Part shown: positions 39,244 to 41,360 of the stretch, one piece after another
How the letters are laid out: each line of letters opens with the position of its first letter
Numbering within the stretch: the first letter of the stretch is position 1
Sequence record: PQ850617.1
Source of the DNA: Escherichia phage ManiMatter_Bas94
Reading direction: 5' to 3' (one strand)
Length of the DNA stretch: 64,000 nt
Position numbers and translations under genes: made by a program
Notes under the pieces: generated by a model
Database searches by the model: none
Told to the model about the DNA's origin: nothing
Seen by the model: only the letters and a program-made list of their open reading frames with translations

Positions 39244-39600
39244 TCATACTGGTTGATTGCTCTTGTTAGTACCCACACTTTCATTATTCTTCTCTTTATG
39301 AAGTCTATAAACAGCTGTCGCCATGCAAGCAACAGCTTCATTGTGTGGGAGATGCATCCCTGTAGAACCATCCCAATCTTTGAACTCATTGTCAAAGACT
39401 CCGGTAGGCTCTGGATACAGAGCTTGCAGCTCAACCAAATCATTAGCAACTTGTTGCCATTTATCATCAGACCAGATAGGGTCATCCAACCAGTAATACA
39501 AATAGGAATGGATGATTAATTGCCTTCTGTGCCGATTAATTACTTCAGCGGGACTTATCTCACTTCCATTTGAAGTCCTAAATGTATTACTGTCAATCAT
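39244..39600 (-). CDS. Hypothetical protein
   Basis: 118-aa ORF. Confidence 0.4.
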   Translation of the reverse strand: MIDSNTFRTSNGSEISPAEVINRHRRQLIIHSYLYYWLDDPIWSDDKWQQVANDLVELQALYPEPTGVFDNEFKDWDGSTGMHLPHNEAVACMATAVYRLHKEKNNESVGTNKSNQPV

Positions 39601-39602
39601 GA

Positions 39603-40259
39603 TTAATTATTCCAAGTAGTTGATAAGGCTTTCCAAGAGATAGGATAAAGTTTCTTCATTTCTTCATCAATAGTTTGTGCAAACAGTCGGACCTCATACT
39701 GAGCGTGCTCTGACAGACGTTGACGGCACACATCTGACCAGCCATATAGAGAGCCAGTCCACACCCACTCAGTGATCATCCCCTGAGGAAGAACAAATCG
39801 AGCTTGCTCTGGTGCAACAAATTCAATCAACTTATCATATGCTGCTAGAGAGGATTCATATGCATCGTTAATCAGCATTAATGCTTCAGCTCGTTCTCCA
39901 TCGATGAGTTGAACCCCTGAACCTGCATGGAGGTCCGAAGGTCTCGCAAAAATCTCTTTAGGGATGAAGACTTCAACTGCTCCATCTTTATACCGACGGG
40001 ACATTTCGTTCCACGAGAATCCAACCTGATGCTTGCCCAGCTGTCTCGCAATTGCGATAGGTGCTTTGCATCGGAAACTGACTTGTGGGTGTCGGAATGG
40101 AGTAACATGCTTTTCTCTTGCGAGGAAGTTGATGAGACGTTCATCACGTTCATTTAAATCACCTTCACGGGTTACGCCAAAGGAAACTCGAGCTGCGTTT
40201 ACTACGCTACGATCGCTTCCCATAGCTTCGATTAATGTTGCTTGTAGTTGTTCATTCAT
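39603..40259 (-). CDS. thyX: ThyX-family (flavin-dependent thymidylate synthase-like) protein
   Basis: 218 aa; ERLINFLAREKHVTPFRHPQVSF...MSRRY resembles ThyX core; signature region appears divergent. Confidence 0.6.
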   Translation of the reverse strand: MNEQLQATLIEAMGSDRSVVNAARVSFGVTREGDLNERDERLINFLAREKHVTPFRHPQVSFRCKAPIAIARQLGKHQVGFSWNEMSRRYKDGAVEVFIPKEIFARPSDLHAGSGVQLIDGERAEALMLINDAYESSLAAYDKLIEFVAPEQARFVLPQGMITEWVWTGSLYGWSDVCRQRLSEHAQYEVRLFAQTIDEEMKKLYPISWKALSTTWNN

Positions 40260-40274
40260 CCGTGAATATCCTTA

Positions 40275-40550
40275 TTATTTATTGCTCAGTGCTGTGTCCA
40301 AAAATGCTTTCAGGTTTGCTTCAGTCTGCATACCAGAGAGGCTGTAATGTGCGCCACTATTCCGGTCAGGCACAACGAAAGCAGGAATGCTTCGTACACC
40401 ATACTTAACAGCTTGTTCACGACCGTCACCCTCAAGGATATTAATCTCTTCCACTTCTACATCGAACTCCTTAACAACCTTCTCAAAGATAGGAGCCATT
40501 GCTTTACATGGAGCACACTGATCACTATAAAACTTAATTACTTTAGACAT
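40275..40550 (-). CDS. Thioredoxin
   Basis: 91 aa; active site CAPC in thioredoxin-fold context. Confidence 0.8.
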   Translation of the reverse strand: MSKVIKFYSDQCAPCKAMAPIFEKVVKEFDVEVEEINILEGDGREQAVKYGVRSIPAFVVPDRNSGAHYSLSGMQTEANLKAFLDTALSNK

Positions 40551-40558
40551 GTAAATCC

Positions 40559-40738
40559 TTATGCAGTCAGGAGGTGAAGCAGGAATGGGATAACAACAGC
40601 TACGACAACCATGATAGTTGATGCTGTTTGAATCTCACCTTTCTTGTCAGGGGTTTCTTCGATAAGCTTACCAGAAGCCCAATAGATACCACCACCAATA
40701 AAGATAGCCCAAATACCCCATACGATAGCTGATAACAT
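40559..40738 (-). CDS. Small two-TM membrane protein (59 aa)
   Basis: Manual translation MLSAIVWGIWAIFIGGGIYW...VVVAVVIPFLLHLL; AAGGA RBS. Confidence 0.35.
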   Translation of the reverse strand: MLSAIVWGIWAIFIGGGIYWASGKLIEETPDKKGEIQTASTIMVVVAVVIPFLLHLLTA

Positions 40739-40764
40739 ATATCTATATCCTTATAAAGAGAAAA

Positions 40765-40786
40765 CCCCGTCTATTCCTAGACAGGG
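40765..40786 (-). terminator. Terminator after Dps-like gene
   Basis: On - strand CCCTGTCTA-GGAA-TAGACGGGG followed by TTTTCTCTTT. Confidence 0.5.
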
Positions 40787-40796
40787 CTTGAGTTTT

Positions 40797-41360
40797 TTAG
40801 TAAGACACATCACCACTTGAGTGGGACATGTTGCTCTTGACAAAGTAGCAATACTTGCCAAGACCTTCATTAATTTCTTGAAGCATACTTTGATCGACTG
40901 GATAAGTGGCTAAATCGCCATCAAACTCATCCATCTTCTCAATAATACACAACAAGGTCATGCACATATCAGAGAGCATACCGTCCATGTCTAGATCAGC
41001 GTTACCCTCTGAGAACCAAGCATGAGAGAGGTAGTTAGCTGCTGTAGCATCCACTTTAACACAGTGGTAACGCATACGTTCAGCAATACGATCTCCTACT
41101 TGTCGTGCGTAATCTTCCAGCTCGTCAAACATACCATGAACACCCTGAAATCCTGCACCAGAGACGTTCCAGTGGTAGTTTTTAGCTTTGATGTGCAAGA
41201 GTTCCATATTAGCTTGTAAGCAGCTCAGGATGTGTTCTAGGCTGTTTCCACTAATCATACCCTGCATCGTTTCAAGGCGAGAGATTGATAGGTCGGACCG
41301 GTCTAACATGCTATAACTGTCACGACCAATATCAGGTAAATCAAAGACATTCTTATGCAT
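40797..41360 (-). CDS. Dps/ferritin-like protein
   Basis: 187 aa; HWNVSGAGFQGVHGMFDELEDYARQVGDRIAERM matches Dps ferroxidase-site pattern. Confidence 0.6.
   Translation of the reverse strand: MHKNVFDLPDIGRDSYSMLDRSDLSISRLETMQGMISGNSLEHILSCLQANMELLHIKAKNYHWNVSGAGFQGVHGMFDELEDYARQVGDRIAERMRYHCVKVDATAANYLSHAWFSEGNADLDMDGMLSDMCMTLLCIIEKMDEFDGDLATYPVDQSMLQEINEGLGKYCYFVKSNMSHSSGDVSY

Follow-up and report, generated by a model that had tools for sequence, protein, structure and literature searches.

An acidic Dps-type mini-ferritin and its conserved gene partner in Kuravirus-type phages

Why does a virulent phage carry a gene for a ferritin-like protein, and what could this protein do during infection? 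The question is raised by a locus in the window, i.e. the whole stretch of 64,000 nucleotides of Escherichia phage ManiMatter_Bas94 analysed here (PQ850617.1). Positions 40797..41360 correspond exactly to the bounds of an ORF on the minus strand, with an ATG start and a product of 187 aa (21.2 kDa), orthologous to gp67 of phiEco32 (phi32_67). A sequence-only reading had proposed a Dps/ferritin-like protein of a lytic phage, which could sequester iron, protect replicating or packaged DNA from oxidative damage, or compact DNA. The genome is that of a Kuravirus-type (Gordonclarkvirinae) Escherichia coli phage, and the nucleotide identity of the window is 97.5–99% to Bas93, Bas92 and LAMP and ∼93% to phiEco32. 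This is consistent with a virulent, phiEco32-like source phage, in agreement with the lytic lifestyle first proposed. The predicted ribosome-binding site of dps is strong (GGAGGG, 41367..41372, minus strand), 6 nt 5′ of the ATG and within the 3′ end of an HNH ORF. Two plus-strand ORFs within dps (41022..41219 and 41188..41316) are without support and are taken as chance ORFs.

The gene has a history. In the 2008 GenBank record of phiEco32, gp67 is called a ‘DNA-binding protein’ and noted to be a ‘member of the Dps family’. In phage SU10, CDS67 ‘contains a DPS domain’, and the gene is one of few shared by all five C3 phages then sequenced (PMC4281155). The SU10 protein was detected by mass spectrometry in a PEG-concentrated lysate (6 peptides, 35.8% coverage; PMC4281155), showing that Dps is made in SU10 infection. 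In the Privateer paper, a Dps-family protein is reported in purified virions and its function is called unverified (PMC7881722). Given the 2008 annotation and the discussion of the gene in the SU10 and Privateer papers, the Dps gene was already known; both were missed by the sequence-only reading. Family membership itself, recognised since the phiEco32 genome deposit, is thus of little discovery value. What is new here is the acidic, tail-less character of the Kuravirus protein, a neighbourhood shared by four genera, coupling to a gp68-family gene and the splitting of this pair by an HNH gene. Two misleading labels, ‘DNA binding protein’ and ‘integrase’, are also corrected. Our literature search for phage Dps function retrieved no functional study of any phage Dps. 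A clear answer would show whether virulent phages must manage iron and peroxide chemistry during replication, and a knockout is feasible since Bas86–93 infect engineered E. coli K-12 with restored O-antigen.

Assignment to the Dps (DNA-protection-during-starvation) mini-ferritin family, InterPro IPR002177, relies on several lines of evidence. The Pfam Ferritin model PF00210 matches with 31 bits (E 2.8e-7), above its gathering cut-off of 24.5 bits and over aligned residues 55–107 only, so that the family proposed from sequence is supported by HMM. PHROG 3636 matches the product from end to end (E 1.7e-54). A phmmer search of PDB sequences gives 59 matches at E ≤ 1, of which almost all are Dps proteins (best E 2.9e-9), and a profile built from the phage clade with its closest relatives aligns with solved Dps proteins over the whole core (E 7e-35 to 1e-14). 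The AlphaFold2 monomer model, built on 16 homologues, has a mean pLDDT of 80, with values >85 across residues 41–177. It contains helices at residues 41–65, 71–98, 125–150 and 154–177 and a short helix at 107–112, which sits in the BC loop, a typical Dps feature. The predicted Dps subunit fold, a four-helix bundle with a short BC-loop helix, is therefore present in the model. In a Foldseek search of the PDB, the best 50 listed matches are all Dps or Dps-like dodecamer subunits (probability 1.00), with target TM-scores of about 0.8–0.9 and rmsd values of 1.1–2.4 Å to solved dodecamer subunits; the model deviates by 1.1 Å over 137 columns from Bacillus anthracis Dlp-2 and by 1.4 Å from E. coli Dps. 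A ferritin-like fold was thus also borne out by structure prediction. Collectively, HMM, profile, structure prediction and conservation support a genuine Dps-type mini-ferritin, divergent and phage-specific. From homology, fold and the conservation of interface sites, it would assemble into a 12-subunit cage with 23 symmetry; oxidation of Fe2+ by H2O2 or O2 and formation of a ferric core would be expected by homology only.

Other identities were rejected. A 24-subunit ferritin or bacterioferritin is ruled out, since all significant sequence and structure matches are of Dps type and the ligand pattern is of the inter-subunit Dps type. A Dps-like protein with a bacterioferritin-type centre, PA4880 (8w1e), ranks 45th among the best 50 Foldseek matches, with 15% identity. 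A phage integrase, the label carried by GenBank records such as those of IME267, IMEP8 and 172-1, is excluded because Pfam gives Ferritin only. The sequence cluster titled ‘integrase [Escherichia phage IME267]’ carries PF00210 alone, and the label is a mis-annotation propagated between records. Four long multi-domain representatives (P0032, P0095, P0128 and P0070) were scanned for capsid-related fusions and contain Ferritin and DUF6321 domains only. One of them, P0032, looks like a repetitive artefact.

The putative ferroxidase centre is encoded by codons 63–95 (41076..41174, minus strand), and residues 63–95 of the product read HWNVSGAGFQGVHGMFDELEDYARQVGDRIAER. All elements of the ferroxidase pattern noticed at first (HWN, G..F, VH, M.DE and IAER) are found within this segment. 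In the phmmer alignment, query residues 56–95 fall on residues 44–83 of E. coli Dps (1dps), an offset of 12. In E. coli Dps, the established inter-subunit ligands are H51, H63 and D67 of one subunit and D78 and E82 of its partner, with W52 as the adjacent tryptophan. With the offset of 12, H63, W64, H75, D79, D90 and E94 of the phage protein map to H51, W52, H63, D67, D78 and E82, with the same spacing. All six are invariant across 16 close homologues (48–96% identity); in a set of 18 sequences down to 25% identity, H63, H75, D90 and E94 never vary and W64 hardly does. Alignment and invariance together indicate that the HWN-type pattern is real and functionally placed and that the inter-subunit ligand set is complete. 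The same fold and ligand spacing (H-x11-H-x3-D … D-x3-E, with Trp after the first His) characterize the bacterial proteins compared, namely Mycobacterium smegmatis Dps2 (2z90/4m35), B. anthracis Dlp-2 (1jig), Bacillus subtilis MrgA (2chp), Pseudomonas aeruginosa Dps (8ff9) and E. coli Dps (1dps/6b0d). Differences are in the overall sequence (20–27% identity), in a 44-residue acidic extension on the phage protein and in gene control, the phage gene belonging to a middle operon of a virulent phage and not being subject to starvation or OxyR control.

The gene is widely kept. A full-length copy occurs in 97 phage records, as compared with 98 records matching the surrounding 4 kb, and dps is retained by practically every genome of the Kuravirus-like phages, a widespread group infecting E. 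coli, and by related prolate podophages of C3 morphotype. The nearest orthologue in sequence and context, phiEco32 gp67 (ABY52868.1), has 187 aa, 98.9% aa identity and the same strand and flanking genes; others across Kuravirus, Suseptimavirus and Nieuwekanaalvirus are SU10 CDS67, Bas93_0056 and ECBP2_0065. Two amino-acid differences separate the window protein from that of phiEco32, and two from that of Bas93. Values of dN/dS are low (0.058 against Bas93, 0.027 against phiEco32 and 0.051 against ECBP2), denoting strongly purifying selection. Remoter copies (31–45% identity) are found in Salmonella phage 7-11, Proteus phages including Privateer, Cronobacter phage GAP52 and Aeromonas phages, and unrelated-looking Dps genes (27–29% identity) in one Streptomyces phage and one cyanophage. 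The proteins of Privateer (QIN94861; 41% identical to the window protein over the core), 7-11 (AEK81988), LAh_6 (gp082) and GAP52 belong to the same phage Dps clade and have the same ferroxidase residues. A profile search of 1.84 billion representatives gave 3355 Dps-like matches, only seven of them under E 1e-30, indicating a tight phage clade within the large Dps family. Recent capture of a host dps gene is rejected, as the structural alignment shows 21% identity with E. coli Dps and the single-sequence match to 1dps has an E-value of 0.18. The NCBIfam equivalogs also stay below their cut-offs, NF006975 with 34.5 versus 114 bits and the haloarchaeal and cyanobacterial DpsA models with 31.7 versus 170 and 17.5 versus 300. 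By these comparisons, the phage proteins form a separate, phage-specific subfamily rather than copies of a host gene.

The genes around dps include several for nucleotide-precursor and replication enzymes. Downstream, on the same minus strand, are a gp66-like ORF (59 aa, phrog_9296, 40559..40738), a thioredoxin gene (Pfam Thioredoxin, 40275..40550) and a ThyX thymidylate synthase gene (Pfam Thy1, 39603..40259), in an order shared with Bas93 and phiEco32. Beyond ThyX lies a gene for a NAD-ligase-like N-domain protein, and the Bas93 annotation shows PhoH further downstream. Upstream, the order of transcription is dCTP deaminase, three small ORFs, the gp68-family gene (108 aa, phrog_10984, 41844..42170), an HNH_3 homing-endonuclease gene (164 aa, PF13392, 41353..41847) and dps. 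Related neighbourhoods occur in phiEco32, Bas93 and ECBP2, and in phage 7-11 ThyX abuts dps. The Privateer locus has dCTP deaminase, thioredoxin, the gp68-like gene, dps and an NrdD-like ORF, with NrdAB nearby, and that of LAh_6 has NrdD, NrdG, the gp68-like gene and dps. A metagenomic phage with 53% identity has an 8-nt overlap between its gp68-like gene and dps, which are followed by thioredoxin, ThyX and NrdD. Taken as a group, Privateer, 7-11, LAh_6 and GAP52 resemble the window in having thioredoxin, dCTP deaminase, ThyX or RNR around dps and a gp68-family gene nearby. The neighbourhood of nucleotide-precursor and replication genes is thus conserved in four genera and a metagenomic relative. 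In these phages almost every middle gene serves nucleotide metabolism or replication, which makes the neighbourhood only mildly informative.

Expression of dps would depend on its upstream neighbours. The gene lacks its own promoter, and its translation is coupled to that of the preceding ORF. The SU10 authors, reasoning from homology with phiEco32, assign CDS25–68 to the middle class and locate a promoter before CDS68 (PMC4281155). Middle and late promoters of phiEco32 contain AATGTA centred at –11.5 and are recognised by gp36, a sigma factor of the phage (PMC12276001). An AATGTA hexamer is present in the window (42212..42217, minus strand), in the 72-nt gap 5′ of the gp68-like ATG; it suggests a candidate gp36-type middle promoter for a gp68–HNH–dps unit, a lone hexamer being a weak signal, and a consensus scan upstream of the gp68-like gene retrieves no sigma-70 promoter. 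This would place dps among the first genes of a middle transcription unit.

On the 3′ side, a terminator-like hairpin with a U-rich tail (40752..40789, minus strand; 12 pairs and a 4-nt loop) starts 8 nt past the dps stop. The hairpin proper spans 40789..40762 on the minus strand and is followed by UUUUCUCUUU. Its predicted folding energy is –17.8 kcal/mol (z = –3.8), with 0 of 200 shuffles equally stable, and it is terminator-like by consensus scan. It is identical in Bas93. In phiEco32, the hairpin is different and has no clean U-run, so that termination is not assured. Of the ‘own terminator’ initially attributed to dps, the hairpin and U-tail stand as a sequence feature, but the claim is overstated for a gene lacking its own promoter and coupled to an upstream ORF. 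The hairpin could attenuate read-through, which fits a protein required in many copies; together with a promoter-proximal position, it would favour high gp68–dps expression.

Which role would fit such a protein? We consider H2O2-driven iron sequestration during phage DNA synthesis the likeliest, and reasonably probable, on the basis of fold, ligands, constraint, conservation and neighbourhood. Phage Dps subunits would form a 12-subunit hollow cage, as in bacterial Dps. Fe2+ would be bound and oxidised at sites between two-fold-related subunits, with H2O2 as the preferred oxidant, and the oxidised iron would be kept inside the cage as a ferric core. Removal of both Fenton reagents would then suppress hydroxyl radicals while the phage genome replicates. 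Redox-active or metal-dependent dNTP enzymes would be running meanwhile, namely flavin-dependent ThyX, thioredoxin and the iron-dependent host RNR, joined in related genera by phage NrdAB or NrdDG; the link to ThyX and RNR chemistry is suggested by gene neighbourhood alone. Of the functions proposed at the outset, iron sequestration and oxidative protection fit the predicted set of intact, invariant ferroxidase ligands, the role itself being read from these features. Two elements of the locus, the conserved N-terminal extension and the gp68 partner, are unexplained by a plain mini-ferritin role.

The extension bears on the way in which DNA would be protected. It is encoded by codons 1–44 (41229..41360, minus strand), is found in the Kuravirus-like clade only and is net acidic. 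It carries the conserved motifs MHxNxFDLP and S-x-x-R-L-E/D-x-M, and residues 19–37 are predicted as a low-confidence helix by AlphaFold2. A wrong-start artefact is excluded by the strong ribosome-binding site, the conserved extreme N-terminus and a frame kept through indels; the 44 codons are under purifying selection (dN/dS 0.05–0.13). The first 44 residues contain four K/R for seven D/E, the last 11 contain no K/R, and the pI of the protein is 4.7. The 146–156-aa Dps proteins of 7-11, Privateer and LAh_6 are devoid of the long extension and have short N-terminal tails with three to five Arg/Lys. E. coli Dps binds DNA through its basic tail. DNA binding is plausible, from their sequences, for the Privateer, 7-11 and LAh_6 proteins. 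The trait of the DNA-binding Dps subclass, a Lys/Arg-rich tail or a positive surface, is absent from the Kuravirus protein. Some Dps proteins bind DNA via surface charge or metal bridges, so that a protein lacking basic tails may still be a DNA binder.

These features weigh on the alternative that the cage coats or compacts phage or host DNA during infection, iron chemistry being secondary. Such a function is annotated in phiEco32, Bas93, ECBP2, 7-11 and PHROG 3636, and the tails of the Privateer, 7-11 and LAh_6 proteins are reminiscent of the E. coli one. A possible adaptor is at hand in the coupled gp68-like protein, which is basic and has a predicted SH3/KOW/PWWP-like barrel, often a nucleic-acid-binding fold; its fold matches are, however, non-significant. 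The label derives from the family name and not from experiment, our literature search found no such test, and an acidic Kuravirus protein with a net-acidic extension and a C-terminal tail free of K/R argues against it. Several well-studied Dps proteins, such as Listeria Dps and B. anthracis Dlp-1/2, which are among the best structural matches, are known to be non-DNA-binding, and this also speaks against DNA coating. With its acidic pI and the lack of basic tails, the ‘DNA-binding’ label is unsupported for the Kuravirus protein, as is the compaction or binding of DNA envisaged by the sequence-only reading. We regard this alternative as rather unlikely. For an acidic protein devoid of Lys/Arg-rich tails, protection would probably be chemical, by removal of iron and peroxide, and not by coating or condensing DNA.

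A second alternative is a virion-associated Dps that travels with the genome, or attached to it, inside the prolate head; outside the cell it would guard the encapsidated DNA against iron and peroxide damage, or it would enter the next host along with the DNA. Mass spectrometry identified Privateer Dps in virions taken through CsCl step and equilibrium gradients (PMC7881722). SU10 Dps was found in a phage preparation (PMC4281155), and the gene is conserved specifically among C3-morphotype podophages. A viral fold search also detects putative Dps-like domains within larger proteins of uncultured phages named ‘prohead protease’. The SU10 preparation, however, was PEG-precipitated only, its authors warn of non-structural proteins, and polymerase and thioredoxin were detected as well (PMC4281155). 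The SU10 cryo-EM study places structural and ejection proteins only in gp1–24, from major gel bands only, and leaves Dps unmentioned; since its structural table covers gp1–24 only, it neither confirms nor excludes Dps in the virion. The location of dps in the middle replication and nucleotide block, outside the late structural block, argues against packaging, and a stable 12-mer cage or a DNA-bound contaminant could co-purify with particles. This explanation is quite improbable for the window phage. For the protection of packaged DNA, also among the functions first envisaged, the virion detection in the distant relative Privateer is an indirect argument in favour (PMC7881722), and the Kuravirus data give it no support. 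The presence of Privateer Dps in CsCl-purified virions suggests that, in one relative at least, Dps may act in association with DNA or the virion.

A third alternative keeps the iron chemistry and changes its purpose. Rather than a general antioxidant, Dps would be a buffer or donor of iron to nucleotide enzymes that depend on this metal, or a counter-measure against a host response; it could load a di-iron RNR or the Fe–S activase of the anaerobic enzyme, or act on an iron- or ROS-dependent abortive response of the host by starving or quenching it. NrdD/NrdG are next to dps in LAh_6; in Privateer an NrdD-like ORF and NrdAB lie in its vicinity, as does NrdD in the metagenomic relative. A thioredoxin gene is always close. 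In Bas93, the closest annotated relative, no RNR is annotated in the early and middle region, which presumably leaves the phage reliant on the host enzyme with its iron requirement. Set against this, the basis of the proposal is purely gene neighbourhood. To our knowledge, Dps proteins are not established as iron donors for RNR, which counts against the donor function. For the host counter-measure, no link with a defence system was found, and the BASEL study, where the Kuravirus genus is sensitive to Fun/Z only, reports no Dps-related phenotype. The probability of this alternative appears low, and sequestration of iron with removal of peroxide stays the preferred reading.

The least ordinary element of the locus is the conserved gp68–dps pairing. 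A gp68 orthologue lies directly 5′ of dps, overlapping or abutting it, in phiEco32, ECBP2, Privateer, LAh_6 and the metagenomic relative. The family is homologous across four genera, with an invariant core HRD.L.R … D.V.W..G, and the window member is basic (pI 8.8). Searches of Pfam and of PDB sequences give no match. In its predicted model (pLDDT 70), a five-stranded SH3-like barrel is flanked by helices, and a fold search with this model retrieves only non-significant matches of the SH3/KOW/Tudor/PWWP type (best E 0.017). It can be imagined that Dps and the SH3-like gp68-family protein constitute a two-protein module common to prolate (C3) podophages, with a DNA-tethering or head-loading function; we hold this to be very unlikely. 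If true, an iron-oxidising cage would be held on phage DNA, or brought into the prolate head, by this module, as a phage counterpart of the ferritin-like cargo in encapsulin shells. Three points not covered by a plain mini-ferritin role would be explained as well: that Privateer Dps is found in virions, that the N-terminal motifs are conserved and that the clade is confined to this capsid type.

The gp68–dps pair is usually translationally coupled, and in the window it is split by the HNH gene, which overlaps both the stop of the gp68-like gene and the start of dps. In phiEco32 and Bas93, no HNH gene separates the gp68-like gene from dps, and none is located at the corresponding site. Among about 98 Kuravirus-like records, an HNH gene occurs at this site only in XT18 and XT73.

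The junction between the gp68-like gene (41844..42170, minus strand) and dps (40797..41360, minus strand) is occupied exactly by an HNH_3 homing-endonuclease gene (41353..41847, minus strand), whose stop and start codons overlap with those of both neighbours. The insert is absent from this junction in the related phages Bas93 and phiEco32 and, among ~98 related records, is found there only in XT18 and XT73. On either side of it, the minus strand carries divergent or recoded stretches (41229..41360 and about 41848..41905). All 10 nucleotide differences between the dps genes of the window and Bas93 fall within codons 1-44, adjoining the insert, with dS reaching 0.39 in these codons versus 0 in codons 45-187. 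On the other side, the gp68-like gene is recoded over its final ~60 nt. Collectively, these flanks look like a homing co-conversion tract.

The gp68-like gene belongs to phrog_10984, a family with unassigned function that is kept in four genera of prolate podophages; further members lie in stretches of relatives' DNA (L002, 2679..3008; L004, 11682..11966; L006, 3609..3962; L009, 4679..5008). In nearly all cases its members show translational coupling with dps. Structure prediction gives the protein an SH3-like barrel, without significant fold match, and it may partner the phage Dps.

Many deposited Kuravirus-like GenBank genomes (e.g. IME267, IMEP8, 172-1, DE5 and PAS59; cluster P0004 of the representative search) name the dps orthologue 'integrase'. 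The sole domain of the protein so named is Ferritin/Dps, and the name is a propagated mis-annotation, which could falsely imply a temperate lifestyle for these therapy-candidate phages.

Candidate Dps-like regions also turn up outside the window, in larger proteins. Several uncultured-phage proteins of 333-763 amino acids named 'Prohead protease' (BFVD A0A6J7XDU5, A0A6J7WPK9 and A0A6J7WIS1) contain a region that matches the AlphaFold2 model of the window's Dps (probability 1.00, query TM-score 0.63-0.66). These structural matches hint that in some phages a Dps-like domain may be fused to capsid-maturation proteins. A further candidate from the representative library, P0032 (1156 amino acids), has 20 short stretches matching the Dps profile (query positions 62-97) and scattered, incoherent Pfam matches. 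Rather than a Dps, this protein is most likely an artefact of repetitive or low-complexity sequence.

Elsewhere in the window, a minus-strand ORF of 118 amino acids (39244..39600) has a single match, PF22745 (E 2.5e-35), the Ia domain that binds NAD+ at the N-terminus of NAD-dependent DNA ligase. Its counterparts in related phages are named 'DNA ligase'; its length is far below that needed for a ligase. Upstream of its replication genes, the close annotated relative Bas93 (L003, record 47.4-56.8 kb) carries a block encoding an amidoligase, a COOH-NH2 ligase, a glutamine amidotransferase, a gamma-glutamyl cyclotransferase and a RimK-like ligase, to which large minus-strand ORFs at ~47.0-56.8 kb of the window correspond roughly in position. 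According to the BASEL paper, these phages withstand restriction-modification systems without known DNA modification.
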